Shown: positions 3,828 to 63,838 of the stretch, in pieces | How positions within the stretch are numbered: position 1 is the stretch's first letter | How the letters are laid out: each line of letters starts with the position of its first letter | Source of the DNA: Candidatus Moraniibacteriota bacterium | Lineage (GTDB): Bacteria; Patescibacteriota; Minisyncoccia; Moranbacterales; UBA1568 | Direction: 5' to 3' | NCBI GenBank assembly: GCA_013334245.1 | Contig: JAAXXZ010000002.1 | Location: 21,166 to 85,165 of the forward strand | Length of the DNA: 64,000 bases | Translations under genes and position numbers: made by a program | The notes under the pieces: model-generated | Seen by the model: only the letters and a program-made list of their open reading frames with translations | The model's database searches: none | Told to the model about the DNA's origin: nothing

Positions 3828-4226
3828 ATGAAGGCTATCAGGCGCTTCCATCTCAAAAATCCTTTGGGAAATCGCGGAGAGAATGATGCCGCGACTTTCT
3901 TGCGGTCGCTCGGGTACAAGATCCTCGATAGGAATTACAGGAACGCTGTCGGAAAAGCGCTCGGTGAGATCGATATCGTCGCCAAAGACGGCGACGAGAT
4001 CGTGTTTGTCGAGGTGAAAGCTCGGACCGCATCGGAACGCTCATCCGTTCTTCCCGAGGAAAGCATAACGTTTGGAAAACTGAGAAAACTGGAAAGAATA
4101 TCGTCGGCATATCTCCGGGAAAAATCCGTGCTCTCGGCGCAGTATCGCTTCGATGCCGTGCTTGTGATGTATGGCGACTCTCCACACGGAAGTGAGATAC
4201 GCCACTTCAAAAGTATTTTTCTTTGA
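3828..4226 (+). CDS. yraN: YraN family (UPF0102) endonuclease-like protein
   Basis: GE(I)DIVAKDGDEIVFVEVKARTAS motif typical of UPF0102/YraN. RBS ggtgggagg lies upstream. Confidence 0.8.
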   Translation: MKAIRRFHLKNPLGNRGENDAATFLRSLGYKILDRNYRNAVGKALGEIDIVAKDGDEIVFVEVKARTASERSSVLPEESITFGKLRKLERISSAYLREKSVLSAQYRFDAVLVMYGDSPHGSEIRHFKSIFL

Positions 4227-4345: not shown

Positions 4346-4705
4346 ATGACTGTCAGCAGCGAATTCCTGGAAGAGATGAAGGAGGCTCTTCTGTTGGAGA
4401 AGTCCCGGATGGAGGCGGAGCTTGGCCGATTTGCGGATAGGACGGATATTCCCGGTGATTACGAGACCCGCTTCGAGGATATCGGAAACGACCGGGATGA
4501 TAATGCGACCGAAGTCGAGCAATACGCGGATAATATCGCTCTTGAGGAGAATCTGGAAGGCCAGCTGTCCGAGGTAAACGAGGCCATTTCAAGGATTGAT
4601 GCCGGCACATACGGCGTATGTGTCAGTTGCGGTGCCGATATCGAAGAGGGCAGACTTCGGGCATATCCGGCCGCGAAGGAATGCATGGCCTGTTTGAAGA
4701 AATAA
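4346..4705 (+). CDS. TraR/DksA family C4-type zinc-finger transcriptional regulator
   Basis: C-terminal CVSCGADIEEGRLRAYPAAKECMACL four-Cys finger after a coiled-coil N-terminus. Start chosen at the MTVSSEFL ATG. Confidence 0.75.
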   Translation: MTVSSEFLEEMKEALLLEKSRMEAELGRFADRTDIPGDYETRFEDIGNDRDDNATEVEQYADNIALEENLEGQLSEVNEAISRIDAGTYGVCVSCGADIEEGRLRAYPAAKECMACLKK

Positions 4706-5162: not shown

Positions 5163-6686
5163 ATGCCTGCACGAATATTTTCCGTCGCCACGGTCGGACT
5201 CGACGGGGTGACGGTCGAGGCCGAAGTGGATGTCCTGAATCAGGGATTGCATGCGTTTACGCTCGTCGGACTGCCGGATACCTCGGTGAAGGAATCCCGT
5301 GAGCGCGTCAGTTCTTCGATCAAGAACAGCGGTTTCAAGCCGCCACACCAGAACGGTCGCATCACCGTCAATCTGGCCCCGGCGGATTTGCCGAAACAAG
5401 GGCCCGTGTACGATCTTCCGATAGCGCTCGGCTATCTTCGTGCTACCGGACAGTTGGATTTCGAACCCGCGGGAAAGCTGTTTCTTGGGGAACTCGCGCT
5501 CGATGGCGCCGTACGACGCGTAAATGGCGTGATTTCGGCGGCCGTATTGGCACGTGACGCCGGTTTCCCGGAGTTGTACGTACCTGCGGAGAATGCGGCG
5601 GAGGCGTCGCTTATTCCGGGCATAACCGTCTATCCCGTACGGAATCTCTTGTCACTCGTGTCCCATCTGTTGGGTCGCGAGCGTATCGAGGCCTTCGTGT
5701 CCGAAGAGACGCCGTTTGTCGAAGACTCGAAGGATGTTCTCGATATGTCGGAGGTGCGCGGTCAGGAGCATGCGAAGCGCGCGCTTGAAATCGCGGCTTC
5801 CGGGGGTCACAATGCGATTTTGGTCGGCCCGCCGGGATCGGGAAAGACATTGCTTGCGCGAGCTCTTCCGACCATTCTTCCCGCGTTGTCCCTTTCGGAA
5901 AGCCTGGAAGTGACCAAGATTTTTTCGGTCGCCGGAAAGCTGTCGGCGGAAAAGTCGCTCGTACGTCGTCGTCCGTTCCGATCACCGCACCATAGCGCAT
6001 CGGCGATTTCGCTTGTGGGAGGAGGGACCGTTCCGCGGCCTGGAGAAGTGAGTCTGGCACATCGTGGCGTGCTGTTTCTCGACGAATTTGCGGAGTTTCC
6101 GAAGTCCGTGCTGGAGAACCTTCGTCAGCCGCTTGAGGATGGCCATGTGTCGGTTTCCCGCATCAAGGGAACAAGCACGTTTCCTGCCAGGTTTACTCTG
6201 GTCGCGGCCATGAACCCGTGTCCGTGCGGGTACGCCGGGGATCCGGAACGTATGTGCTCCTGTTCGCCGTTTCATGTGCTCCGATACAGGGAAAAGATAT
6301 CCGGGCCGATACTCGACCGCATCGATCTTCAGGTATCCGTTCCGCGACCGAAAATAGAGAAACTCGAGGAAACCGGACGGGGAGAGTCGAGCGCCGATAT
6401 ACGGGAACGGGTGGAGGCTGCCAGGGCGCGGCAGGAGCGTCGTTTCGAAGGCAAGACGATTCATACCAACAGCGAGATGGGTCCGGAGATGATACGGGAG
6501 TACTGCAGACTTGATGAGGATTCGAAACAGTTGCTTCGCGGAGCCGTTTCAGAGTTGAAATTATCCGCCAGAAGCTATCATCGCATCCTGAAAGTCTCCC
6601 GGACGATCGCCGACCTTGCCGGATCGGAAGATATCCTGATGGGCCATGTCGCGGAAGCACTGCAGTTCCGATTCCGCAGCGAGTAA
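5163..6686 (+). CDS. comM: YifB/ComM family Mg-chelatase-like AAA+ ATPase
   Basis: N-terminal Lon-like domain (GLPDTSVKESRERVSSSIKNSGF), Walker A (GPPGSGKT), AAA+ core and C-terminal ChlI-like domain. Confidence 0.9.
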   Translation: MPARIFSVATVGLDGVTVEAEVDVLNQGLHAFTLVGLPDTSVKESRERVSSSIKNSGFKPPHQNGRITVNLAPADLPKQGPVYDLPIALGYLRATGQLDFEPAGKLFLGELALDGAVRRVNGVISAAVLARDAGFPELYVPAENAAEASLIPGITVYPVRNLLSLVSHLLGRERIEAFVSEETPFVEDSKDVLDMSEVRGQEHAKRALEIAASGGHNAILVGPPGSGKTLLARALPTILPALSLSESLEVTKIFSVAGKLSAEKSLVRRRPFRSPHHSASAISLVGGGTVPRPGEVSLAHRGVLFLDEFAEFPKSVLENLRQPLEDGHVSVSRIKGTSTFPARFTLVAAMNPCPCGYAGDPERMCSCSPFHVLRYREKISGPILDRIDLQVSVPRPKIEKLEETGRGESSADIRERVEAARARQERRFEGKTIHTNSEMGPEMIREYCRLDEDSKQLLRGAVSELKLSARSYHRILKVSRTIADLAGSEDILMGHVAEALQFRFRSE

Positions 6687-7736: not shown

Positions 7737-7844
7737 CGGGAAACGAAAAGAAAAGTGAAAAAAGGAAGGACGGGAATATTCGTATCACATTCACCTTCCG
7801 TTCGTTTCATCCCATGAAGATTCTGCACAATATATACTACAGAT

Positions 7845-8666
7845 ATGGAACAAGTGAAGGCGAAAAAATCACTCGGACAGAACTTCCTCCGCGATGTCGA
7901 TATCATCGACGGGATTTTGGAAATCGCGGACCTCGGATCGGAAGATCGGGTGCTTGAGATAGGTCCGGGAACGGGTGCTCTCACATCTCATCTGCTCGCG
8001 CACGTGGCGTCCGTGACCGCCGTCGAGATCGATCACGACATGATCGTCCGTCTCGGAGAGACCTTTTGCGAATCCAAGGGCTTGTCTTTATTGGAAGCGA
8101 ATATCCTCGACATGGATCTCGGCACCTATCTTCGCGACGCCGGTTTCGAGGATGGAAAGTACAAGATCATCGCGAATATCCCCTATTACATAACCGCTCC
8201 GATCATCCGTCTCCTCTTGTCTTTGGCGATACGTCCGGAGAGGATGGTGCTCATGGTGCAAGAAGAGGTAGCCGATCGACTTTCCGCGGCGCCAGGCGAC
8301 ATGAGTCTCCTCTCGCTTATGGCACAGTACTATGCCGACGTTTCGAAGGAACTGTTTGTGCCCCGATCCGCCTTCATTCCCGAGCCGAAGGTTGACAGCG
8401 CGGTGATCAGGCTCGTTCCAAAACGTCCGTATTCGAAGGATACGGATAGGATTCTTTTCCGCACGGCGAGAGCTGGATTCGCCGCGAGGAGAAAGACCCT
8501 CGCGAACAATCTGTCATCCGCTTTTCATATCGAGCGGAAACAAGCCGAAGAAATGATCGTCGGAATCGGGCTTGGTCGCCTGGTCCGTGCGCAGGAACTG
8601 TCGGTCGAGAACTGGATCACGCTTTCAGAGGAGGTCGAGGCTATGCGGAACGAAACCGGAAATTGA
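7845..8666 (+). CDS. rsmA: 16S rRNA (adenine1518/1519-N6)-dimethyltransferase
   Basis: KSLGQNFLRDVDIIDGILEIADL...VLEIGPGTGALT is the classic KsgA/RsmA N-terminus and SAM motif. Confidence 0.9.
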   Translation: MEQVKAKKSLGQNFLRDVDIIDGILEIADLGSEDRVLEIGPGTGALTSHLLAHVASVTAVEIDHDMIVRLGETFCESKGLSLLEANILDMDLGTYLRDAGFEDGKYKIIANIPYYITAPIIRLLLSLAIRPERMVLMVQEEVADRLSAAPGDMSLLSLMAQYYADVSKELFVPRSAFIPEPKVDSAVIRLVPKRPYSKDTDRILFRTARAGFAARRKTLANNLSSAFHIERKQAEEMIVGIGLGRLVRAQELSVENWITLSEEVEAMRNETGN

Positions 8667-8699
8667 CATCCGGCGGACCGTCGAAAAAACCTCAGTAAA

Positions 8700-8725
8700 A
8701 AAGCCGGCCTGAGCCGGCTTTTGCG
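8700..8725. terminator. Bidirectional terminator between convergent rsmA and the UbiA-like gene
   Basis: aaaagccggcctgagccggctttt, a palindrome flanked by A- and T-runs. Confidence 0.65.
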
Positions 8726-8750
8726 GTCGATACGCCTATCGTTTTGTCCT

Positions 8751-10427
8751 TCACGAAAGAAGGATGAGTGCGACGCAGATGCCGTACAGGGCGATGAAAA
8801 GCATATTCCATGCCGGAAGTGAGCGGAAAGAACCCCAACGGGAACTCTTTTTCCCCGCGCGCCGAATACTCATGAACGCGAGTGATCCGAAGAGAAAGGC
8901 CGGCAAGAACAGGCCGGCATCATGCAGCGCGATTGGGCTGCCGACATAGCATGCGAATAGGACGCTGCCGAGAAAAAGCCGGGCTTTTTCTTCGCCGAGT
9001 ATGACGGGAATGGTGAATACCCCGTCTTGTCTGTCTCCCTTCATGTCTTTGAAGTCTTTGAGCGGTATGGTGGCCGCATAACAGACGAAAAGGAACGCGA
9101 GCAGAGGAAGCGGAACCGGGCTGATCGTGGGAACAGGTGCGATGACGGAGTAGCCGGCAAGCATGACGGCGATTCCTGCCGCCGCCGAGAGCGCCGTCGC
9201 GACGACGGGTATCCGCTTGAGACGGAGTGGGGGCATGGAGTATATCCATGCAATCGCCTGATAGGCCAGGAGGAACAGCATGCTTTTAATGCTGACAATC
9301 GAGGAAAACAGGATGGAGGTGAAAAAGAACAGTATTCCGATATGACGGTATCGGTACTCCGATATGGAGCGAACCGGCAACGGGCGGGACGGATTGGTAA
9401 TCGCGTCGATATGGCGGTCCGTCAGGTCGTTGCCGATCACGGAGGCAAGCCACGCGCTTTCGACGGCTATGACCATGACGATGACGGAAAGGATTTCGAA
9501 GAGTCTGAAGTCGGGTTCCGCACCGGCATAGATCATGGCGAGGCATCCGCCGAGAAGGAGGAGGCCTCCATGCCAGAAGACCTGTGGCCATCGTACGTTT
9601 CCGAGGAGGGCGAGGAATGTCTTTCTGAACGAATGAAAAAGGAGTATGCCGACGGAAAGAACTGACAAAATGGCGTATACGAGACTCATGCGATAGCCGA
9701 GCGACATTCGGGGATCTGCCATCTCCATCCCGAAAAACTTTTTGGTGGAGAGCATGTACCCGGCGATATCCGCGCCCGTGACGTGGAACAGTCCCTGCCG
9801 GGAAGCCAGGGCGCCGATCGCGATATAGGAGGGAAACGTGCCGAGAATGTAGAACACGAGATACGACAAGAAGACGATTCCGACGGAGCGGAGCGGTTTA
9901 CGGGTGCGGAATAACGAATACAGACCGAGAGCGATGCTCATGGCGGCGACTTCGAACCGGACCCCGTATGTGATTCCTATGTCCGGTCTGCCTCCGAAAA
10001 AGTGGAAAAAACCGGAGAAAAGTCCCGAAAGTCCGTCGAGCTGGTAGAAGCTCCAGAACGCCTGGTCGCCGAAAATCATCTTGTCGATAATCGGCGGTGT
10101 CCAGATGATGAGAAATCCGGCGAGGAGCAGATTCGTGGCGCGAGACCATGATGTGGCTCCGGCAAGTCGCGCGACAGGTAAGAAAAGGAGGAACGCGAAG
10201 AGAAAGAACAAAAACGTATGTGAGAACTCGTAGAGCATGTAGTTCAGCGGCTCAGAGCCGAAAAGATTCGTCCCGAGCTCGATCAGGATTCGGACGATAA
10301 TGATGGCGAAGAACGCCGTCGCAAAACCTCCGAGGGTGAGGGGCGCCGCTTCTATCGCCTCAAAAAGATCGGTAATTGCCTTATTGAGTCGTTTTAGCGC
10401 TCGACGAAGGGTTGATTTGTTGCTCAT
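8751..10427 (-). CDS. Polytopic membrane protein with C-terminal UbiA-family prenyltransferase domain (N-terminal ~250-aa multi-TM extension)
   Basis: The C-terminal half carries both Asp-rich UbiA motifs (GNDLTDRHIDAITNPSRPLP and KDFKDMKGDRQDG). The N-terminal half is predicted membrane-spanning with no recognisable motif. Confidence 0.7.
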   Translation of the reverse strand: MSNKSTLRRALKRLNKAITDLFEAIEAAPLTLGGFATAFFAIIIVRILIELGTNLFGSEPLNYMLYEFSHTFLFFLFAFLLFLPVARLAGATSWSRATNLLLAGFLIIWTPPIIDKMIFGDQAFWSFYQLDGLSGLFSGFFHFFGGRPDIGITYGVRFEVAAMSIALGLYSLFRTRKPLRSVGIVFLSYLVFYILGTFPSYIAIGALASRQGLFHVTGADIAGYMLSTKKFFGMEMADPRMSLGYRMSLVYAILSVLSVGILLFHSFRKTFLALLGNVRWPQVFWHGGLLLLGGCLAMIYAGAEPDFRLFEILSVIVMVIAVESAWLASVIGNDLTDRHIDAITNPSRPLPVRSISEYRYRHIGILFFFTSILFSSIVSIKSMLFLLAYQAIAWIYSMPPLRLKRIPVVATALSAAAGIAVMLAGYSVIAPVPTISPVPLPLLAFLFVCYAATIPLKDFKDMKGDRQDGVFTIPVILGEEKARLFLGSVLFACYVGSPIALHDAGLFLPAFLFGSLAFMSIRRAGKKSSRWGSFRSLPAWNMLFIALYGICVALILLS

Positions 10428-54838: not shown

Positions 54839-55579
54839 ATGCCGGAGGGGCTAGTACATGGTACGGCTGTGGTTTTGCACGGTTTCGGTGGGATAAAGGA
54901 ACAGGATCATATTCTGAAGATGGCGGCCACATTCCGAGACAACGGATTTATCACGTTCAACTTTGATGCCACTAACTCTTTCGGCGAGAGTGAGGGGGAG
55001 TACTGGGACGCGCGGCTCGGGCTACACGCTGAGGATTTGGAGGATGTCGTGAAATGGGTGCGACAGCAGGTCTGGTTCAGGGAACCTCTGGCATTGACGG
55101 GGCACAGTATGGGCGGGTATGCCGTTGCTCGATACGCGGAACGATATCCGGACGAAGTCTCGATCCTTGTCCCGATCGCCCCGGTCGTTTCGGGCAAGCT
55201 TTCTTTTGAAGCGCATCATGAGGAAGACCCCGTCGCATTCGAGGAATTCAGGCGGCGTGGATTCAAAGAATCCGTGAGTCATACATCCGGTCGTCTCAAG
55301 CGTTCCTCGTGGGCGGAAATGGAGGAACGGCTGCATCATGATCTTTTGCCGGATGCGAAGAAACTCGTCATGCCGACGCTTCTGGTCGTCGGGTCGAAGG
55401 ACTTCTCGATCAGACCTCGGGATGTGCAATCACTCTACGACGCGCTTCCGGCGAGAAAAGACAACGAGATCCGGATTATCGAGGGGGCGCCGCACACGTA
55501 TCGAAGTCGGGAAGATGTCGATGCCTTGTATGAGATCATCTCGAACTGGTTGAAGGACTTGATGCTGAAGAAACATTAG
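54839..55579 (+). CDS. Alpha/beta hydrolase
   Basis: HGFGG oxyanion region and GHSMGG nucleophile elbow. GC-rich, unlike its neighbours. Flanked by R2 and R3. Confidence 0.75.
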   Translation: MPEGLVHGTAVVLHGFGGIKEQDHILKMAATFRDNGFITFNFDATNSFGESEGEYWDARLGLHAEDLEDVVKWVRQQVWFREPLALTGHSMGGYAVARYAERYPDEVSILVPIAPVVSGKLSFEAHHEEDPVAFEEFRRRGFKESVSHTSGRLKRSSWAEMEERLHHDLLPDAKKLVMPTLLVVGSKDFSIRPRDVQSLYDALPARKDNEIRIIEGAPHTYRSREDVDALYEIISNWLKDLMLKKH

Positions 55580-55636
55580 GAATAAGCCAGAAAAGGAGCC
55601 ATGCACCATTGTTGTGAACAGCTTCTATCCCGATTG

Positions 55637-55732
55637 AATCAATCAAAAACAACCAAAAACCCGGCCATCCACACGGACCCGGGTTTTTGATTGAGAAAAA
55701 AGGCTTCACAGAGCGACGCTTGCGACATCTTC
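55637..55732 (+). repeat. Intergenic repeat family copy R3 (long hairpin caatcaaaaac...cccgggtttttgattg + ggcttcacagagcgacgcttgcgacatcttc)
   Basis: Direct repeat of R2, diverging after cgacatcttc. Confidence 0.75.
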
Positions 55733-55790
55733 TGAAAGTGAGCGCGTCATTATTAGCTCTTGAAAACAAGTGATTTCGTCTGTAGCTTGA

Positions 55791-56258
55791 TTATTTTATT
55801 GCATTCAATTCGACAGGAAAATTGTGAAGATTATCACATTCGCTGCAAATGTAGGTCATACTTCCAGCATAGCTCTCATTTAATCCTGTTATTGAAATAA
55901 CAAATGAGCCTGCTCCTTTTATCCTATGTTTTTGGTCAAAATAATTAATTACTCCTATTCTGTCCGGAGTAACAAAACCTTGAAGAATAAAAGCGACCTT
56001 TAGAATAGAGTTTGAAAAAACTTCATATTTACCGGTAATGCGTTTTCCATGCTGTGATATGGATAAAATACCTTTTTCGCCTTCGAACCACGGCTTTTGC
56101 CGGTCTTGATTGCCATACACAATTTCATATTTCCCTGAAATGTTCGGATAGAACTTCATAAACAGTGAATAATACCATTCAAATATCTTATTTTTTAGTA
56201 AATAAGCAATGAATGTGGCAAAGAGTGATGAAACGATGCCTGTAATGAAAGCGCTCAT
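55791..56258 (-). CDS. Hypothetical membrane-anchored protein (AT-rich, island)
   Basis: 155 aa with an N-terminal TM (ITGIVSSLFATFIAYLL) and a soluble domain with CSEC. About 30% GC. Confidence 0.5.
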   Translation of the reverse strand: MSAFITGIVSSLFATFIAYLLKNKIFEWYYSLFMKFYPNISGKYEIVYGNQDRQKPWFEGEKGILSISQHGKRITGKYEVFSNSILKVAFILQGFVTPDRIGVINYFDQKHRIKGAGSFVISITGLNESYAGSMTYICSECDNLHNFPVELNAIK

Positions 56259-56540
56259 AGGTTCGAAAATAGTAAAATAATTAAGCCAATACTATATATC
56301 ATACCCCAATTAAACCGAAATACAATTTTGCAGGAAAGTAATTTGGATGCCAAAATGAACTAGGCACTTTGCTCCCTTTGGGCCTAATTGTTTTAGGTAT
56401 TGGTTGCTGATATAAAAAAGGGTATACACATGAAGTGGCATACGCCTCTTTGGTTAATTGCTGGTCAAGCTGGCACCGGCACCGCCCATAAGGGATGCCT
56501 TTTTGGCGCAATCCTCGATTTTGAAACAAATCTGCCTTTT

Positions 56541-56571
56541 CGACATCTTCGGGAGGGAGTATGATGATATG
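56541..56571 (+). repeat. Intergenic repeat family copy R4 (cgacatcttcgggagggagtatgatgatatg)
   Basis: Identical core to R1 and R2. Confidence 0.7.
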
Positions 56572-56777
56572 AACTCCGAAATGTACAAATATCTGTTCCG
56601 GATTAATTCATATTTTTCCGGCCCGGAAGGCATAAGGGGGGGGTGCTGACGGGACAAAATGTACCTGATGCATTTTCTGAGATCAAAATGAGAAAGATGT
56701 TAATGATTTCTTTGCCTCATTAAATTAGCTTTGACTAAGGCTAGTTTGGGGCGTAGAATCTATAAAATCATTACTTT

Positions 56778-59270
56778 ATGATTCCGGTTAGAATTAAGAA
56801 CAATTTATATAGATTTAAGAGTTTTTGGCTGTTCAAGAAATGGCTTAACAGGCCTGTATTTTTGTTTTGGGCAAATATGTTCCATGGGCATTACACTATG
56901 GATAATACTAAAAATTACATACGAATATTAAAGCCAACCATAGTTCCCTTTTTGGGATCTGTATTGTATAGCGCCTTTATCATATTTATTCTTGAGCTTT
57001 ACAATAAATATTTTCCAATAAATTCTCAGTTTTTTGATAAGGCTTCAACTGATTCATTGCTTACTGCTGTGGCTAGTCTTATGGGTGTATTTCTCGGACT
57101 TTATTTTGCAGCTCTTTCTGGCATTGCAAGCAATTTCTTAATAAGAGCAACACAGGATGTCAGAAGATTCTTTTTTTCTGCTCCCCTGGGGTTGCAATAT
57201 GTTCGCACTATTGCAATTACTGGAATTGTAAGCGTATTTTATTTATTCCTTAAATCGTTTGGGCACACCTTTCACCCCGTTGGCCTTGCTTTTCTGTCTC
57301 TATTAGCTGCATACATAATTATAAGGTTCTGGAGTATTGGATCTTCGGTTTTTAATTCAATGGAACCGGGCAGCTCCTTTCCATTTGTTAGAAAGGATAT
57401 AGAAGATTCTATAAAAGATATTGCACCACCAGGATTTCAATGGCAAACGCCATTGCTTCAAAATCATAGACGTAGATTGGTTGTTACTGATTTGGATTTG
57501 CTAGCAAACTTGGTAGATTTTGGAATTAAAGAACTCGAACTTCCTGATGAGCAGTTGCTTACAGCTATTGCTCACTTGCGATTAATCTTACTCAAATATT
57601 CAGAAAGCAAGGGAAAAATACCCAGAAAGAGTCTCTGGCATGAGACCAAAAGCCAGTTTGAGAATTGGGCATTTACTGACTCTACCCGAATTAGTCTTGC
57701 TCTAAATACCGGAACATCTATCCAGCCTAAATCAATTCAGGATTTCTTCTGGTTTGAAAATAGAGTCTTTGATATTGTCGTCAAAATACTCAATGAGCTT
57801 GGAAAAAAGAACAAAATACTATCTGTATTTCAGGGCTCTGAATATTTTATTGATGTGGCTGAAGAATATGGGGAAAATCTTGAAGAAGAAAATGTAAAAA
57901 CATTGCTTCAAAAACTAGAGGGAATTTTTTCCAACACTCATTTGGAGAAAACAGATGAAGGTCAAGTTGCGCACAAGGAGCAACTTGCACTTTTAGAAAC
58001 CCAGGGAAGATTAGCCATAGCCGCATTACTTGGGCTAATTAGACACATTGATAAATATCCTTGTGAAAAAATTTCATCGAAAATATCTGGGATTAATTGG
58101 AATTCCAAAAAGAAAGAAACTATTTATTTGACGGGACTTCCATCTTCCATGCTGCCAAGATTAGAAGAAATAGAAGCTAATCTGGAAAATGAAAAGGTTA
58201 TTGAGGGCAAGATACAATCTCCTAGATGGTATATAAAAACTCTTTGCATGCAACAGTACTTATACTCTCTTGAGAAGTATTTTATTTATATAAAATCATT
58301 GCATTCTAATTATTTTCAACGAAAATTCGATAAATTATTAGCAGAGGAACAATATTCGCTTGCAGTGCATTTCCTTCAAAGATGGCTTGAGTTTTCCAAT
58401 AAGTATCAGAGTTTAATTGGATATCTCAAAAAACAGGCTGAATGCTGTAGAAAATTTCATTGGGTAAAAGATTTGCCATTTCCAGACTTTGATTTTTCTC
58501 AAGAAGAAAAAACTGCTTTAGACAGAGAAAGAGAGGTTACTGATAAAATGATTCAGTTACTTCCCAAATTAAAATCAGCAGTAACTGGAAAAGAATTACC
58601 TGACTACTTTGGTCAAGCGCTCACTCTTGGGCTCCAAGCTTGCTATGAAGCATGCATGGATAATGATGTGGAAAGATTTATAAATATTTTCCCAATTATT
58701 TTTGATGCATCGCTGGTATCTCATGATAAAATTCGGAAAGAAGTTCAAAATTGGAGCCAGGACGATAGTAAGATTATTTACTCAACAGAACCACTGGCTA
58801 ATCTGTTCGAAATAAGTGGGTTTGCTCTTCTTTATGCGGAGCTATATCAAAAAAATGAACTCTGGGACATAACAAAAAAAACGTGGAATGCATATTTAAA
58901 AATTGTAGATGCTAAAGCGGCAATTCAGTTTATGATTGCAATTGTGGGATACCGAAATAGCTTGTTTGTCTTGATGCCCCAAGCAATTCTGAGAACAAAC
59001 TGGCAGATGAATTTTAATAGAAAAATGAAAGAAGCGGGGTTGCCAGTTTTTCCTGAAGATAGATATGGCAGAAAAGGAAAAATATCTCATAAAAGTGCGT
59101 TAATAAGAGTTATTGCAAAATGGGGAGGCCTATCAATATTTTCTGCCCAAGAAGTATTTTTCACTATTTATTTATCGAATCGTCCTGAAGCAAAAGACCT
59201 AGCTTTCCTAGATAAGCATGAGCTTAAAGAGGAGGTTGAAAAAGAGGAAAAAGGAAACATTGAAGAATAA
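56778..59270 (+). CDS. Hypothetical 830-aa protein: N-terminal 4-TM domain + large all-alpha cytoplasmic domain (AT-rich island, unknown function)
   Basis: Long ORF at about 31% GC. TM helices at about aa 55-75, 95-120, 150-170 and 175-195. No recognisable catalytic motif. Confidence 0.6.
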   Translation: MIPVRIKNNLYRFKSFWLFKKWLNRPVFLFWANMFHGHYTMDNTKNYIRILKPTIVPFLGSVLYSAFIIFILELYNKYFPINSQFFDKASTDSLLTAVASLMGVFLGLYFAALSGIASNFLIRATQDVRRFFFSAPLGLQYVRTIAITGIVSVFYLFLKSFGHTFHPVGLAFLSLLAAYIIIRFWSIGSSVFNSMEPGSSFPFVRKDIEDSIKDIAPPGFQWQTPLLQNHRRRLVVTDLDLLANLVDFGIKELELPDEQLLTAIAHLRLILLKYSESKGKIPRKSLWHETKSQFENWAFTDSTRISLALNTGTSIQPKSIQDFFWFENRVFDIVVKILNELGKKNKILSVFQGSEYFIDVAEEYGENLEEENVKTLLQKLEGIFSNTHLEKTDEGQVAHKEQLALLETQGRLAIAALLGLIRHIDKYPCEKISSKISGINWNSKKKETIYLTGLPSSMLPRLEEIEANLENEKVIEGKIQSPRWYIKTLCMQQYLYSLEKYFIYIKSLHSNYFQRKFDKLLAEEQYSLAVHFLQRWLEFSNKYQSLIGYLKKQAECCRKFHWVKDLPFPDFDFSQEEKTALDREREVTDKMIQLLPKLKSAVTGKELPDYFGQALTLGLQACYEACMDNDVERFINIFPIIFDASLVSHDKIRKEVQNWSQDDSKIIYSTEPLANLFEISGFALLYAELYQKNELWDITKKTWNAYLKIVDAKAAIQFMIAIVGYRNSLFVLMPQAILRTNWQMNFNRKMKEAGLPVFPEDRYGRKGKISHKSALIRVIAKWGGLSIFSAQEVFFTIYLSNRPEAKDLAFLDKHELKEEVEKEEKGNIEE

Positions 59271-59271
59271 T

Positions 59272-60321
59272 ATGAATAGCTTGATAAAAAAAATTATAGA
59301 AAAAATTAAACCTGTCTTGCGGGATCCTCTTTGTCTGAAAAAATGGGATTCTCCTGATCATTATGGGCATCGCTTAGAAGACAGTAATCGTCTATCCGTA
59401 AGGGTTTCAGGCTCCATGAGAAGAGATTTGTACTCTTATAATGGGGATGCTTTTATGTTCACTCAAGATATCTATGCTGGAATAATGCCATTCATGCATT
59501 ACAGAGGAAAAAGAGAAGCCTACCCAACTAAAGTAATGCCTGCAAATAAAGAGAAAGAGCAAATGATTTGCGAAGGAATTTCAGATAGAGGCAATGCATA
59601 TTTCATTGAGGATGCATTGTGTGATTTTGTTAGAAAAACAGCACAAATATTATGCACTGATGGCATTGTATTTTATGAGATAATTTATGACAAAGATGAA
59701 AATGGACAAATTGAGAGTTTTGAATTAGAAACAATCAGGTCAAAATATTTTTTCCGTTTTCTTGGAAATTATTACCAAATAATACCTTGGTGGGAGGCAA
59801 AAAGATCTCACGTTAGAGTTCAGCTTGTAAAAATTCCAAAAGACAAAATTTTAAGAATAGATATCCCTCTTGAACTTGGGGGTGGTAGAAAATTAAAGAG
59901 AGTAATCAAGCGGTTATGGAAATTGAGTAAAGAAATAATACCTATATTTCAAATGGAAGCGATGGAGAATGATAAGAGTATCGGTTTTGATATGGAAAAA
60001 TTTAGCATGGCCAAATATTTAGAAATAGCAAAAGTAACAAGAGATTTTGGGTGGAGCCAGAGACAACGAGCTGAGAGTAGTTCAATCACTGAATACTATC
60101 TGATATTGCGTCATTTAAGAACAAAGAAGGCGGAAGCTTTAATTAGGGAAAAAATTATATTGGAGTTAAACAATACTCTCAATGGACTAGTTTTAAATTT
60201 GGGCGTAAAAGTAAGTATGGACAACTTGTTTACGTTACGAGACGTGGAAAAACAAGAGGAAATTCTAAAAAAAGGAAATGTTACTTTTGTGGATATTGTT
60301 AATGCTATAAAACTAGAATAG
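59272..60321 (+). CDS. Hypothetical 349-aa protein, translationally coupled to upstream 830-aa gene (unknown function)
   Basis: ATG 2 nt after the upstream TAA. AT-rich. No recognisable motif. Confidence 0.6.
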   Translation: MNSLIKKIIEKIKPVLRDPLCLKKWDSPDHYGHRLEDSNRLSVRVSGSMRRDLYSYNGDAFMFTQDIYAGIMPFMHYRGKREAYPTKVMPANKEKEQMICEGISDRGNAYFIEDALCDFVRKTAQILCTDGIVFYEIIYDKDENGQIESFELETIRSKYFFRFLGNYYQIIPWWEAKRSHVRVQLVKIPKDKILRIDIPLELGGGRKLKRVIKRLWKLSKEIIPIFQMEAMENDKSIGFDMEKFSMAKYLEIAKVTRDFGWSQRQRAESSSITEYYLILRHLRTKKAEALIREKIILELNNTLNGLVLNLGVKVSMDNLFTLRDVEKQEEILKKGNVTFVDIVNAIKLE

Positions 60322-60447
60322 CTAAGCTTTATTCATCAAGGTTCTGACTTCTTCCATAACGTGGAGCAAAACGAAATCCGCCCGGAGCCGGAAAATGGGT
60401 TAAGTGCATTTTTTTAAAGATCACGTCTGATTCATTTCGCTTCTTAA

Positions 60448-60482
60448 CTAATATAAAAGGGTATACGTACGTATACCCTTTT
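60448..60482 (-). terminator. Perfect palindromic intrinsic terminator closing the rSAM-peptide operon
   Basis: aaaagggtatacgtacgtataccctttt. Confidence 0.75.
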
Positions 60483-60484
60483 GG

Positions 60485-60523
60485 TTACTTGCCGGCGGAG
60501 CCGGTGCTTGCGCCACTATCCAT
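60485..60523 (-). CDS. Tiny ORF 2: MDSGASTGSAGK (12 aa) with consensus SD, candidate ribosomal peptide
   Basis: Minus strand reads GAGGAGGtaaacgctATGGATAGTGGCGCAAGCACCGGCTCCGCCGGCAAGTAA. 8-nt SD-to-ATG spacing. It resembles tiny ORF 1. Confidence 0.45.
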   Translation of the reverse strand: MDSGASTGSAGK

Positions 60524-60576
60524 AGCGTTTACCTCCTCTGCGTCATTGTTTTTTTTTGAAAAAAGCCTCTGTTTGA

Positions 60577-60612
60577 CTACTTGCCTGTGGAACCGGTGTT
60601 TGCGCCGCCCAT
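60577..60612 (-). CDS. Tiny ORF 1: MGGANTGSTGK (11 aa), SD formed by last two Arg codons of rSAM gene, candidate ribosomal peptide
   Basis: Minus strand reads AGGAGGTGAgaataATGGGCGGCGCAAACACCGGTTCCACAGGCAAGTAG, immediately after the rSAM stop. Confidence 0.45.
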   Translation of the reverse strand: MGGANTGSTGK

Positions 60613-60617
60613 TATTC

Positions 60618-61760
60618 TCACCTCCTTTCGTGTTCGTTTTGATTTTGGAAAATTGTCGCTTCTATTGCAATTGCCTGTTCGAAATGCATGTCGAGCCACC
60701 TTCGCACGCATTCTTGATAGAGTTTCGAGAGGGTGTTGTCCGGTCCGATGGGGCCGACGGTGAGCGGAGAAAAGTCTTTGCCGAAACGCGATATGCCTGA
60801 CTGAAGCTCCCGTAGGGAATACGCATTGGCGTAGGGGAGCCGGAAACAGGCATCGGCATCGATGACGAAGGTTTCCTTCGGGGCTATGGAGTGCGGGAAA
60901 TATCGGATCTCGATACCGTCGATCTCGAACCAGACCGATGAATAGTCCGCGATTGCTTGTGAGAATGCGCAATCGAAGACTTTTCGCCCTACGGCTTCAA
61001 TCAGTTTTGGTACATCATCTGTCCAGTAGAACTTTAACGTGACGGGTCGATGTTTACTGATTTGCTTCAGTTGTCTCCAGGATTCCTTGAATTGTTCTGC
61101 GGTCACGGAGAGCGGCATGAGCTCGGGTCTGGCCGGGGTTACGGTCGTCACGTGCCACGCTTCGATACTTTGTGTCAGTGTATCGCATGTCGCGACGAGC
61201 GTATCGTAATTGAGGCCTGTGAGCGTGGTCAGCGCGCTTACCGATCCATTTGCAACAAGGATATCATGTGCGGCGTCGATGCCTGTGAGCGCATTACGGA
61301 ACGCCGTAGTGGAACATCGCTGCCGGTTGTGGACGGCCTCTGGTCCGTCTATCGAGATATCAAGCCCGTCGAAGCGGAATCCGGAGGCGAGAATCTCTGG
61401 CAGGTGCCGGACATACGAACCATTGTCGATAAGACCGATATAGGCATCTGGCCGTATTTGTCGTACCGCACGGAGCCAGTCGAGGTGTTCCGGCGAGAAG
61501 GTTCGGCCTTCGTGAATGAGGGCGAATCCATGGGGCATCTGCCGGGAAATCGTTTCGACGGCGATACCGAGAGCGTGACTGTCGGCTGGCAGCGAGTCAT
61601 CGTGGGGGAATATGCAGTGTCGGCATTGCAGATTACACTTCCTCGTACCGATGACAGAGAGAATGTTCGGGAGATCGTCGGGCATACGGGTACGGATCGC
61701 TTCGGCGGAACCCGCCTGACGCATGTATGCCAGCCACAAGTCGGCGACGGAATGTTTCAT
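60618..61760 (-). CDS. Radical SAM domain protein
   Basis: CNLQCRHC (Cx3Cx2C) near the N-terminus. The track ORF extends to 61820, but I prefer the start at MKHSVADLW. No SPASM-like Cys cluster. Confidence 0.75.
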   Translation of the reverse strand: MKHSVADLWLAYMRQAGSAEAIRTRMPDDLPNILSVIGTRKCNLQCRHCIFPHDDSLPADSHALGIAVETISRQMPHGFALIHEGRTFSPEHLDWLRAVRQIRPDAYIGLIDNGSYVRHLPEILASGFRFDGLDISIDGPEAVHNRQRCSTTAFRNALTGIDAAHDILVANGSVSALTTLTGLNYDTLVATCDTLTQSIEAWHVTTVTPARPELMPLSVTAEQFKESWRQLKQISKHRPVTLKFYWTDDVPKLIEAVGRKVFDCAFSQAIADYSSVWFEIDGIEIRYFPHSIAPKETFVIDADACFRLPYANAYSLRELQSGISRFGKDFSPLTVGPIGPDNTLSKLYQECVRRWLDMHFEQAIAIEATIFQNQNEHERR

Positions 61761-61946
61761 GGTCGTTTTGCTAGGGGTTGTGAAAGGGCTTTTCTGTCCA
61801 GAGTATGAGCTGGTGTTCAAGAATAGACAAAATAGATGAATGAAACAAAGTTCGATTTTGTATTTATATAAAGCAAAAGAAACGACATCTGATTCTATTC
61901 ATCAAAAATATTGACTCTTTGGATGATTCGGGAATATCATAGGCGT

Positions 61947-62744
61947 ATGGAACTCATGGAATCGCTCATCAATCTGGGACTCAACGACAAGGAAGCCAAG
62001 GTGTACCTGGCTCTGCTTCCGCTTGAAAAGGCGACGGCCTATACGGTCGCGGTCCGGAGTGGGCTCAAAAAGCCGACGGCCTATGTCGTGCTCGATACGT
62101 TGGTGGGAAAAGGGTTCGTCTTGAAGATACCGGGCTCGGACAAGCATCTGTTCATGGCGAAGTCCCCGAAGGAATGCGTCGCGGCCGCTCGACAACGACT
62201 CTCGACTGCCGAGGACGCCTTGCCGGAACTCATGGCCCTGCGCAAGAAAGGGGAGGAGAAGGCGAACGTTTCCTATTTCGAGGGGTTCGACGGGATACGG
62301 GAAATGTATACACGATTGGTGACGGATATGAAGGGGAGGCCGATCGGGGACCGCTCGTTTGTCGCCTTCTATGCGCACCAGAAACACACGCCGGACTTTC
62401 TTCGCGACTACTGGCTGGAATTGAACGAGACGTATCGGGAAGCCGGTATCCGTCGGAAGGCGATCACGACACTCGATCCGTCGATTCGGCAGTACCTGGA
62501 GGAAGAGACGAAACGTCGCTTCGGCATGGACCTGCGTCCGCTTCCGGAATCCGAGTATGCAAGCAATGTCTCCATCGAAATCTACGGCGACCGCGTGCAG
62601 ATCGTCTCGCATCGCGGGATTCAGGGCGTACTCATCGAACACCAAGATATCGCCGACGTCATGCGGCAGATATTCGCCTTGGTGTGGAAAACGACGGAAG
62701 TGACGAACGAAGGAAATGAATCGCAGGAACACCTAAACGGATGA
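61947..62744 (+). CDS. TrmB family transcriptional regulator (paralog of 19882)
   Basis: wHTH LINLGLNDKEAKVYLALLPLEKATAYTVAVRSGLKKPTAYVVLDTLVGKGFV. Divergent from the rSAM gene. Confidence 0.75.
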   Translation: MELMESLINLGLNDKEAKVYLALLPLEKATAYTVAVRSGLKKPTAYVVLDTLVGKGFVLKIPGSDKHLFMAKSPKECVAAARQRLSTAEDALPELMALRKKGEEKANVSYFEGFDGIREMYTRLVTDMKGRPIGDRSFVAFYAHQKHTPDFLRDYWLELNETYREAGIRRKAITTLDPSIRQYLEEETKRRFGMDLRPLPESEYASNVSIEIYGDRVQIVSHRGIQGVLIEHQDIADVMRQIFALVWKTTEVTNEGNESQEHLNG

Positions 62745-63838
62745 CTCTTGAAGACCTGGGATACGATGACTTTTTCGAATCGAGCCGCGCGGAGCGCGGA
62801 TCGGAGGGTGTTCGTGTCGCGCGGGTGATCGCGCAGGCGCGCGGCGGGTACCGGGTGAAGGATGCGGACGGGGAATATGTCGCCAAGGTGACGGGAAAGC
62901 GCATGCACACGGCTTCGTCGCGGGAGGACTATCCGGCCGTAGGGGACTGGGTGGAGCTCTCGGACGTCGCGGGAGGTCAGGCGGTGATTCAACAGATACT
63001 GCCGAGAAAAACCGTTATCCGGAGGAAGTCCGTCGGGAAGGGCAACGGATACGAGGGAAAGAGCGGGGTCCAGATTATCGCGACGAACGTCGACGTGGCC
63101 TTCGTCGTCGAGGCGGTCGACCGCGACTACAACCTGAACCGGATGGAGCGCTACTTCGCCATCGCACGTGACGGAGGCGTACGGCCGGCACTCATTTTGA
63201 ACAAAATGGATCTGATACCCGAAGAGGAGCGGGACGCGAAGGTCGCTGAAATCCGTGGACGGTTCGGGAATATCGACGTGATGACGACCAGCACCGTGAA
63301 CGGGGAAGGGGTGGGTTCGGTGCGGAACGCTATCGAGAAAGGGAAGACGTATTGCTTTCTGGGCTCATCGGGCGTCGGGAAGTCGTCGCTTATAAACGGT
63401 CTCCTTGAATCGGATGGCATCCTGACAGGTGAGATCGGCTCGTATTCCGGACGAGGAAAACATGTGACCACCGCGCGCGAGATGTATTTCCTCACAAACG
63501 GTGGGATAGTGATCGACAACCCCGGTGTCCGGGAAGTGGGGATGACGGATACGGAAACCGGTATCGAGGAAAGTTTCGACGAAATCGCTTCGCTTTCCGG
63601 AAAATGCCGGTTCGCCGACTGTACGCACGAACATGAGCCGGGATGTGCGGTCTTGGCCGCGCTTGGATCGGGGGAGATGAACCGGGAACGATACGACAAC
63701 TATCACAGGCTCCGGAAAGAGGCGGAGTTCTTCGGCTCGTCCGCGTTGGAGCGTCGCGACAAGGACCGGAGCTTCGGGAAATTCATGAAGACCGCCAAGA
63801 AGGAACTGAAGAAGCGCAAAGGGTGCTACGTGGACTGA
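62741..63838 (+). CDS. rsgA: Ribosome small-subunit-dependent GTPase A
   Basis: G4-G1-G3 circular permutation (LNKMDL, GSSGVGKSSLIN, DNPGVRE) and a C-terminal Zn finger (CRFADCTHEHEPGC). ATGA overlap with the TrmB stop. Confidence 0.9.
   Translation: MTLEDLGYDDFFESSRAERGSEGVRVARVIAQARGGYRVKDADGEYVAKVTGKRMHTASSREDYPAVGDWVELSDVAGGQAVIQQILPRKTVIRRKSVGKGNGYEGKSGVQIIATNVDVAFVVEAVDRDYNLNRMERYFAIARDGGVRPALILNKMDLIPEEERDAKVAEIRGRFGNIDVMTTSTVNGEGVGSVRNAIEKGKTYCFLGSSGVGKSSLINGLLESDGILTGEIGSYSGRGKHVTTAREMYFLTNGGIVIDNPGVREVGMTDTETGIEESFDEIASLSGKCRFADCTHEHEPGCAVLAALGSGEMNRERYDNYHRLRKEAEFFGSSALERRDKDRSFGKFMKTAKKELKKRKGCYVD

Follow-up and report, generated by a model that had tools for sequence, protein, structure and literature searches.

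Among the described systems closest to the one reported here are the radical S-adenosylmethionine (rSAM) maturases of the SPASM/twitch type, such as SkfB, SuiB/StrB, CteB, PqqE and MftC, which act on peptides made by the ribosome and modified after translation (RiPPs). The locus under study lies in a stretch of 64,000 nucleotides from a Candidatus Moraniibacteriota bacterium (contig JAAXXZ010000002.1, positions 21,166 to 85,165), hereafter called the window, and consists of an rSAM gene, two mini-genes of 11 and 12 codons and a divergently oriented gene of a TrmB-like regulator. These genes probably constitute a three-part, RiPP-like module specific to Patescibacteria, in which the rSAM enzyme modifies the mini-peptides encoded together with it. 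Such a reading as a RiPP cluster had been proposed in a preliminary description of the locus. It is supported at the genomic level by conservation, selection and co-occurrence, and from these we infer the modification of the peptides by the enzyme. The window enzyme differs from the SPASM/twitch maturases in having neither the cysteines of auxiliary [4Fe-4S] clusters, nor PF13186, nor an N-terminal RiPP recognition element (RRE); its precursors differ in being leaderless, with a core free of cysteine and aromatic residues. RRE-dependent maturases combine that element with a leader, whereas the window peptides begin with the conserved core. The peptides of the family contain no tyrosine, unlike PqqA with its E-x3-Y motif and MftA with its C-terminal GVY. 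The anaerobic sulfatase maturase anSME carries two auxiliary clusters and recognises C/S-x-P/A-x-R in sulfatases; both the clusters and this target are absent in the window system.

Very short gene-encoded peptides modified without a leader are known from microcin C, where the leaderless MccA precursor has 7 residues, and from biarylitides with 5 residues. The enzymes that modify these are a P450 or a ThiF-like adenylyltransferase and no rSAM, in contrast to the system described here, and we know of no rSAM-associated precursors shorter than 11-12 residues. The leaderless shortness of the peptides had been put forward as unusual; the lack of a leader was borne out, but leaderless mini-precursors have a precedent among RiPPs, biarylitides being given in the abstract of PMC12951456 as having the smallest reported precursor peptide. 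A core at the very start of the precursor is known from BtmD, the N-terminus of which is converted into bottromycin (excerpt of PMC5103208). Precursors of the bottromycin type share with most members of the present family a core at the extreme N-terminus and a C-terminal extension, but the enzymes are unrelated, and here the tail is rich in Pro, Arg and Lys and dispensable, as it was lost in the clade of the window, and the core may be repeated up to four times. In streptococcal RaS-RiPPs, e.g., streptide with Rgg/SHP, a dedicated transcription factor adjoins the operon of rSAM and short peptide. This placement of a regulator beside the operon is shared with our locus (compare PMC12445099) and suggests, by analogy, a role in signalling. 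The difference is that here the regulator is of TrmB type and not Rgg, there is no separate pheromone gene or exporter, and the enzyme is without a SPASM domain. The His-Xaa-Ser system (HxsA repeats with the rSAMs HxsB and HxsC) likewise combines an uncharacterised rSAM with a short motif repeated in the target peptide, but differs in motif and gene set, and the recurrent weak matches to HxsB, up to 38 bits, were far below its cut-off of 370. No Pfam or NCBIfam model describes the system, and neither does any paper in the literature searched (motif strings; rSAM with Patescibacteria or Candidate Phyla Radiation (CPR), TrmB or follower peptide). Judging from the sequences, the module works like an rSAM-RiPP system and very probably represents an rSAM-peptide family that is new and has unusual features.

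The layout of the locus was found as previously proposed, with an rSAM gene, two mini-genes each led by a strong Shine-Dalgarno sequence (SD), one terminator and a divergent TrmB-like gene. The open reading frame (ORF) of the rSAM enzyme runs on the minus strand from 61760 to 60618 and encodes 380 aa with the cluster motif CNLQCRHC, according to both the ORF list and the reading of the minus strand. Its last codons and stop, AGG AGG TGA, form the SD GGAGGTGA at 60625-60618, and 8 nt past it, at 60612, is the ATG of peptide gene 1 (MGGANTGSTGK, 60612..60577, minus strand). Because this SD overlaps the rSAM stop codon, translational coupling is suggested. Peptide gene 2 (MDSGASTGSAGK, 60523..60485, minus strand) has an SD of its own, GAGGAGG at 60538-60532, with an 8-nt spacer. 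The operon is closed by an intrinsic terminator hairpin at 60482-60455 on the same strand, with a 12-bp stem and a 4-nt loop, then the T-tract TTTTATATT; it is the sole terminator-like site within 60380-62000. RNA folding of the mini-ORF region made only this terminator apparent (z = -0.7), and Rfam gave no RNA family accounting for the region when window positions 55300-62100 were scanned. The 24-nt cores of the two mini-ORFs are identical at 20/24 bases and form the diverged direct repeat noticed earlier. The gene of the TrmB-family winged-helix regulator is located on the plus strand at 61947..62744 (265 aa); the mechanical ORF starts with TTG at 61911, and the ATG at 61947 is the more likely start.

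A peptide gene was found beside the rSAM gene, and on its strand, in all of the 22 non-redundant loci with a readable flank, over a range of enzyme identity from 85% down to ~28%. Loci cut off at contig ends are uninformative and were kept outside the 22. The general hallmark of RiPPs, a precursor gene beside the modifying enzyme, is thus present in every one of these loci, and at a further place, seen without its DNA, a 33-aa ORF had been called at the same position. The peptide gene lies downstream of the rSAM gene in most loci and upstream in L013, L015, L037 and L040. The peptides start with the consensus M-x-G-A-N-T-G-S-A-G. Within it [N/S]-x-G-S varies least and is mostly embedded in A-N-T-G-S-A-G; T, S, A, V or M can stand between N and G. 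Close orthologs (67-85% identity) have one or two mini-ORFs, M[SG]GA[SN]TGS[TA]GK and MDSGASTGSAGK, and retain SD and terminator. Compared with the window, peptide gene 1 of L005 carries four synonymous and no non-synonymous changes, and peptide 2 is identical in L003 and L005, with changes that are synonymous or confined to the stop codon. Distant homologs with 47% to ~28% identity, collected by profile search and by scans of genomes and metagenomes, carry without exception an ORF next to the rSAM gene and on its strand. Their peptides include MAGANTGSAGLPKNPQPVKKGKPKNQSKGK, MNINTGSAGVRMTGANTGSAGVPRRPRPVKKAK, MAGANTGSAGVGKPRRPKKRRK and MAAANTGSTGVTRPRPVR, as well as MAGANAGSTFRGKPQAPTKIKPPPKPRHPSK, MAISNSGSSKIRSLASNSGSSKIRSIGSNSGSSKIRR and MTNNNMGSANAPKRGRKPRAVKRAKKAAKK, which are located upstream of the enzyme, and precursors of 63 aa with three or four core units.

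Identical cores use different codons and all third positions vary, which indicates selection on the peptide sequence. Indeed, variation was seen at 8/8 third, 4/8 first and 5/8 second codon positions of the core, and over 105 pairs there were 481 synonymous versus 152 non-synonymous codon differences. The strict core motif occurred 39 times in ~609,000 six-frame residues (all fetched loci and the window), against 0.45 occurrences expected in shuffles, and all matches to a looser core pattern, except two spurious ones, were beside a same-strand rSAM homolog. The motif was not found in the non-family rSAM loci L030-L035 and L042, and Pfam and NCBIfam scans of seven longer peptides gave no match even at E = 10. 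The mini-ORFs are real, conserved peptide genes under protein-level selection. Among the outcomes named beforehand as speaking against coding were failure of the mini-ORFs to be conserved at orthologous loci, and a DNA-binding site in place of a reading frame. Frame, SD, start and stop were kept beside every ortholog or distant homolog that could be inspected, with the SD GGAGGTGA conserved before the peptide start in most lineages and not clear in L037, L038 and L040, and family-wide the DNA-binding site fails on the excess of synonymous differences. Genes of 11 codons, which are missed by standard gene callers, can in this way be identified confidently via comparative genomics.

The peptides have the core at their N-terminus, in most cases with a small residue after the methionine, and no leader. 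Behind the core, most lineages have a C-terminal tail, or follower, rich in Pro, Arg and Lys. In an alternative architecture, units of 11-13 residues, each ending with Arg or Lys, are concatenated, from one to four in distant relatives. The window peptides consist of one unit with the tail reduced to a Lys, and the most fitting reading is that they were trimmed to a single unit in a family that was ancestrally longer, the ancestral form presumably being an N-terminal core with a basic follower. The claim that the precursors lack a leader is true, and the picture of peptides made of a bare core applies to the trimmed form in the window and not to the ancestral one. In one homolog, P0003 (394 aa), the rSAM enzyme is fused in frame to peptide 1 (...KEVSIMGGANTGSTGK) by a 1-nt insertion in an A-run just ahead of the SD, CAAAAGGAGG versus CTAAGGAGG or GAAAGGAGG (L003:5100-5185; also L004, L009 and L016). 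The fusion sequence is present in independent assemblies, from both JGI and NCBI. It could be a real fusion, a natural "Rosetta stone", or a frameshift-prone site, or an assembly error shared by both.

Some peptide genes showed peculiarities of their own. At L036:3626-3772 two complete peptide units, each with a PRP-type tail, are contained in one ORF, MAGANSGSAGITTPRPPKGIRKEVKAMAGANTGSAGVGKPRRPEKRSK, in which RKEV is the in-frame reading of the SD of the second unit, AGGAGGTGA; this reflects either the loss of a stop codon or initiation at both sites. A match to the type III hammerhead ribozyme was found at L037:2254-2308 (45.2 bits with a gathering score of 48.5, E = 4e-7), with the core CUGAUGAG...CGAAA visible, ~50 nt upstream of a gene for a 37-aa triple-repeat peptide, which suggests that the peptide mRNA is processed. 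In the clade at ~30% identity, seven copies of a conserved RNA-like element were observed, GAyUCGGAG-(variable hairpin with compensatory changes)-UUGGCAACAGAA (L014:4126-4162, 4441-4473; L015:2575-2606, 2760-2791, 4142-4174; L029:558-594, 875-907). A single copy comes after the rSAM gene and another after every peptide gene; the element had no Rfam match and could be a processing or stability element.

Against Pfam, the window enzyme matched the generic Radical_SAM model (PF04055) alone, with 35.5 bits, and it has the features of that family, the CxxxCxxC motif for the SAM-cleaving [4Fe-4S] cluster and a partial TIM-barrel core. The best NCBIfam score was 39 bits, to TIGR04133, where 425 would be needed. 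Nine diverse members of the family behaved alike, and no curated family was reached, in agreement with the earlier suspicion of an undescribed rSAM family. PF13186 was matched neither by the window protein nor by the nine members. The hidden Markov models (HMMs) of the PqqE and MftC families gave no match from the window protein, and at best 25-30 bits from the other proteins scanned, versus cut-offs of 381 and 265. Scores to TIGR03942, the anaerobic sulfatase maturase, were at most 26 bits versus a cut-off of 349; there is no sulfatase gene at the locus, and the peptide motif is unlike C/S-x-P/A-x-R. A sulfatase-type S-x-P-x-R motif was considered for the peptides and rejected, as the spacing of basic residues after the Ser is not constant. 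Assignment to a family with a known non-peptide substrate had been anticipated as an argument against a peptide maturase; no such family was assigned, and the nearest solved folds are peptide and protein maturases of SPASM/twitch type (SkfB, anSME, SuiB), with DesII and anSME among the structural neighbours. The similarity extends over the core and the start of the C-terminal extension, and the Cys-rich auxiliary-cluster motif (TIGR04085/PF13186) is missing. The comparison with PqqE, MftC and SPASM/twitch families that had been called for thus had a divided result: the enzyme is not SPASM/twitch by sequence, but its fold is SPASM/twitch-like.

Among 73 full-length members, only the three cysteines of CxxxCxxC are conserved (C42, C46 and C49 in the window enzyme), and no other column exceeds 22% Cys. 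Because of this, the enzyme is predicted to have a single cluster, with no SPASM/twitch auxiliary cluster. Residues specific for the family and conserved in it are H48, H83-x-G85-R86 (where a GGE motif is usual), D134, S136, D138, G139, H144, N145, Q147 and R148. In the C-terminal domain P289, S291, E296, D301, D303, R307, W355 and E367 are conserved; this domain is family-specific and contains no conserved Cys. The enzyme has no RRE, only two short helices within ~35 residues ahead of the cluster motif, and no conserved PqqD-like gene was seen near the rSAM loci examined. A word-indexed search of 5.8 billion proteins returned only 25 rSAM clusters, and when 1.84 billion representatives were searched in full with a HMMER profile, 77 were returned at E < 1e-30, mostly full length. 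The family size of ~77 refers to clusters at 50% identity in a small, uncurated family. Records that carry a label are almost all Patescibacteria (Moranbacteria, Nomurabacteria, Saccharibacteria, Uhrbacteria or "Patescibacteria group"); one metagenome-assembled genome labelled Candidatus Fimivivens (Bacillota) has a locus syntenic with the window and an enzyme 85% identical. Many lineages of CPR/Patescibacteria, with their tiny genomes poor in biosynthesis, keep the module, which points to a function important to their largely host-dependent biology. Of the out-group rSAMs the nearest is P0102 (L042:404-5073), with a family-profile score of 108 bits. It is situated in an operon of an Opp/Dpp-type oligopeptide ABC (ATP-binding cassette) transporter, with no TrmB gene and no NxGS peptide, and marks the boundary of the rSAM family.

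The divergent regulator proposed earlier was recognised by the Pfam TrmB model (PF01978, 58 bits versus a cut-off of 25.6) and has the expected N-terminal winged helix-turn-helix with a dimerisation helix after it. Its residues 14-139 align by sequence to the TrmB structure 3qph in PDB; beyond ~140, where archaeal TrmB has a sugar-binding effector domain, there was no Pfam or NCBIfam match, and equivalog scores were far under their cut-offs. Wherever upstream DNA was available, a TrmB homolog almost always stands divergently beside the rSAM gene, and its conservation equals or exceeds that of the enzyme; the exception is L040, with a 70-aa ORF without Pfam match at that position. The intergenic region between the two genes contains a 17-bp inverted repeat, GTCA-N7-TGA[C/T], in the window (GTCAATATTTTTGATGA, 61899..61915) and in 15 of 20 other loci scanned, ~30 nt ahead of the TrmB start wherever a start was called. 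A promoter scan of the window placed the -35 box of TrmB, TTGACT, at 61911-61916, where the repeat overlaps it. The -10 box TATCAT, separated from TTGACT by 18 nt, ends at 61940, and the ATG at 61947 follows after 6 nt; the TrmB mRNA appears to be leaderless or near-leaderless, and the same arrangement is visible in L039. The repeat is a predicted operator, and its position suggests that TrmB regulates itself and also the divergent rSAM operon. With at least 135 clusters, the family of the regulator exceeds that of the enzyme in size. At L041:1968-3771 a homolog with 60% identity shares the operator (AGTCAATAATTTTGATGAAT) and stands divergently beside another rSAM, of 304 aa, which scores 22 bits against the family profile. 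An NxGS peptide is absent from that locus, tRNA-like sequences are found downstream, and a second TrmB paralog is nearby. It seems that the TrmB-like protein represents a regulator type generally linked to rSAM genes in Patescibacteria. We also considered the protein as an RRE-like dedicated partner or peptide chaperone, which is unlikely, and an obligatory chaperone it is not, because the L041 homolog accompanies an rSAM without NxGS peptide.

In the mechanism that we favour for the module, a repressor or sensor of TrmB type would bind GTCA-N7-TGA[C/T] over its own promoter, next to the rSAM promoter, and the operon would give a single-cluster rSAM and, by coupled translation, one or more tiny substrate peptides. 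Because the peptides are without leader, the core itself is presumed to be the recognition element, bound by the family-specific C-terminal domain of the enzyme. The substrates in the lineage of the window would be the single units GGANTGSTGK and DSGASTGSAGK. After reductive cleavage of SAM, the 5'-deoxyadenosyl radical would abstract a hydrogen within the invariant Gly-Ser, preferably at Ser C-beta, and an aldehyde would be formed (formylglycine-type, -2 Da), which could cyclise onto a nearby nitrogen. Oxidation of the alcohol at Ser C-beta is favoured because the enzyme lacks both an auxiliary cluster and a conserved Cys as hydrogen donor. Both anSME and DesII oxidise alcohols, DesII with a single cluster and anSME acting on Ser. 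Chemistry at Gly C-alpha, a crosslink or an epimerisation would be alternatives, and any one specific chemistry is doubtful. Substrates of 10-12 residues are short enough for chemical synthesis, so the reaction is directly testable in vitro. It appears an even call whether the family amounts to an unrecognised class of rSAM-modified peptides confined to Patescibacteria/CPR, in which a single-cluster enzyme with a cluster-less, twitch-like C-terminal domain performs a new chemistry on a leaderless [N/S]-x-G-S core. If so, precursors of 11-12 aa would be the shortest known for any rSAM enzyme, and the product could serve either as a signal, sensed via the regulator of TrmB type, or as an effector when the bacteria live in dependence on a host. 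For enzymology, a peptide-associated rSAM without auxiliary cluster or RRE, with a leaderless substrate free of Cys and aromatic residues, would be a combination outside the known rSAM-RiPP chemistries.

Several observations weigh against this reading of the module. No protease, exporter or immunity gene was conserved in the neighbourhoods examined. There is no conserved Cys or auxiliary cluster to serve as hydrogen donor or electron conduit, which speaks against the usual crosslinking and epimerase mechanisms as well. The AlphaFold2 (AF2) model of P0003 leaves the tail with the fused peptide disordered, with a confidence score (pLDDT) of ~40, and gives no structural hint of docking, though such a model is uninformative on binding. 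In L041 the regulator is also found paired with another rSAM, one without an NxGS peptide. Finally, in the clade of the window the core DNA is conserved far past what the peptide needs, and partial copies of it flank foreign DNA; because of this, it has a second, non-coding role in that clade.

This second role was seen in the terminator and its surroundings. The hairpin is conserved in L001-L006 with compensatory changes of the stem (GGGTATAC versus GGGCATAC), and the segment GGCGCAAGCACCGGCTCCGCCGGCAAGTAA, the hairpin and ~40 nt beyond are near-invariant among lineages with 67-85% identical enzymes. In the window the conserved stretch past the terminator, TATATTAGTTAAGAAGCGAAATGAATCAGAC (60424..60454, minus strand), is part of a repeat unit that recurs with partial copies of the peptide gene. 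Downstream of the rSAM operon in L001 there are three more copies of core, terminator and ~40 nt (6338-6440, 7800-7900, 8680-8770), without recognisable SD and separating unrelated gene cassettes. Two of them start at the core and have no start at the normal position; the third retains the ATG and reads MDDSASTGSAGK. The copies look like an att-like or cassette-array structure, and no recombinase was seen in the L001 DNA available. The window itself has a decayed third copy of the peptide gene with half a terminator (ATGGGCGGTGCCGGTGCCAGCTTGACCAGCAATTAA...GTGTATACCCTTTTTT, 56412..56489, minus strand), which lies ~4 kb downstream, reads MGGAGASLTSN before a stop, and forms the distal direct repeat of a ~4-kb AT-rich insertion. 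It bounds most of an AT-rich block at 55650-60450, directly past the peptide-gene terminator, with 34-38% GC compared to 52-60% elsewhere. The block, which was probably acquired horizontally, has ORFs at 56778-59270 (830 aa), 59218-60321 (367 aa) and 55791-56258 (155 aa). The proteins of 830 and 367 aa belong to no Pfam, NCBIfam, PADLOC or PHROGs family, and the 155-aa ORF, in PADLOC and PHROGs scans only, gave nothing but a marginal match to a two-transmembrane (2TM) effector. From these sequences, the 3' end of the peptide gene with its terminator behaves as an insertion or recombination hot spot in the clade of the window. This accounts for part of the diverged direct repeat, not for the coding conservation across the family.

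The strongest form of this argument, that the tandem repeat is a DNA-level element, i.e., a recombination, attachment or protein-binding site with incidental reading frames, could draw on the 20-mer GCAAGCACCGGCTCCGCCGG, which is identical in six Moranbacteria-like lineages whose rSAMs share only 67-85% identity, on the three copies without recognisable SD between unrelated cassettes in L001, two of which also have no start at the normal position, and on the decayed copy at the border of the insertion. Family-wide, however, synonymous sites diverge freely while peptide, SD, start and stop are kept. The codon-position analysis led us to reject a pure DNA site, and we hold incidental reading frames to be highly unlikely; the DNA-level element fits best as something secondary that the locus acquired in a single clade, and not as its primary explanation. 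That the mini-ORFs encode genuine small peptides, nucleic-acid-binding, ribosome-binding or signalling, which are co-regulated with an rSAM acting elsewhere and are not its substrate, we consider unlikely. Their conserved part, the N-terminal core, is not basic; multi-unit precursors repeat it, and it was retained when the clade of the window dropped the tail, although the Pro/Arg/Lys tails of distant homologs do resemble those that bind nucleic acids or ribosomes. In addition, the adjacency to the enzyme survives rearrangement, with the peptide gene upstream or downstream, the stop codon of the enzyme lies within the SD, the two partners occur naturally fused in frame, and the nearest folds are those of peptide maturases. 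Against these points stand the undocked tail of P0003 in AF2 and the enzyme's lack of an RRE. A peptide that serves as scaffold or sacrificial donor for a small molecule or cofactor, as PqqA and MftA do, or as a partner activating the rSAM on another substrate, would suit a minimal module without exporter or immunity gene, the reduced genomes of the hosts, and a very small and highly conserved core. This we regard as quite unlikely, in view of the variable residue in N-x-G, from which no fixed small molecule could be made of the whole core, of the multi-unit precursors ending with K or R, more like released peptides, and of peptidase or tailoring genes, none of which are conserved nearby.

The TrmB-like gene is followed in the window by the gene of the ribosome-biogenesis GTPase RsgA (62741-63838), which overlaps its end by 4 nt. 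RsgA adjoins TrmB also in L001, and in L005 it is ~2.6 kb away. Because this neighbourhood is lost in more distant loci, RsgA is probably not part of the rSAM-peptide system.

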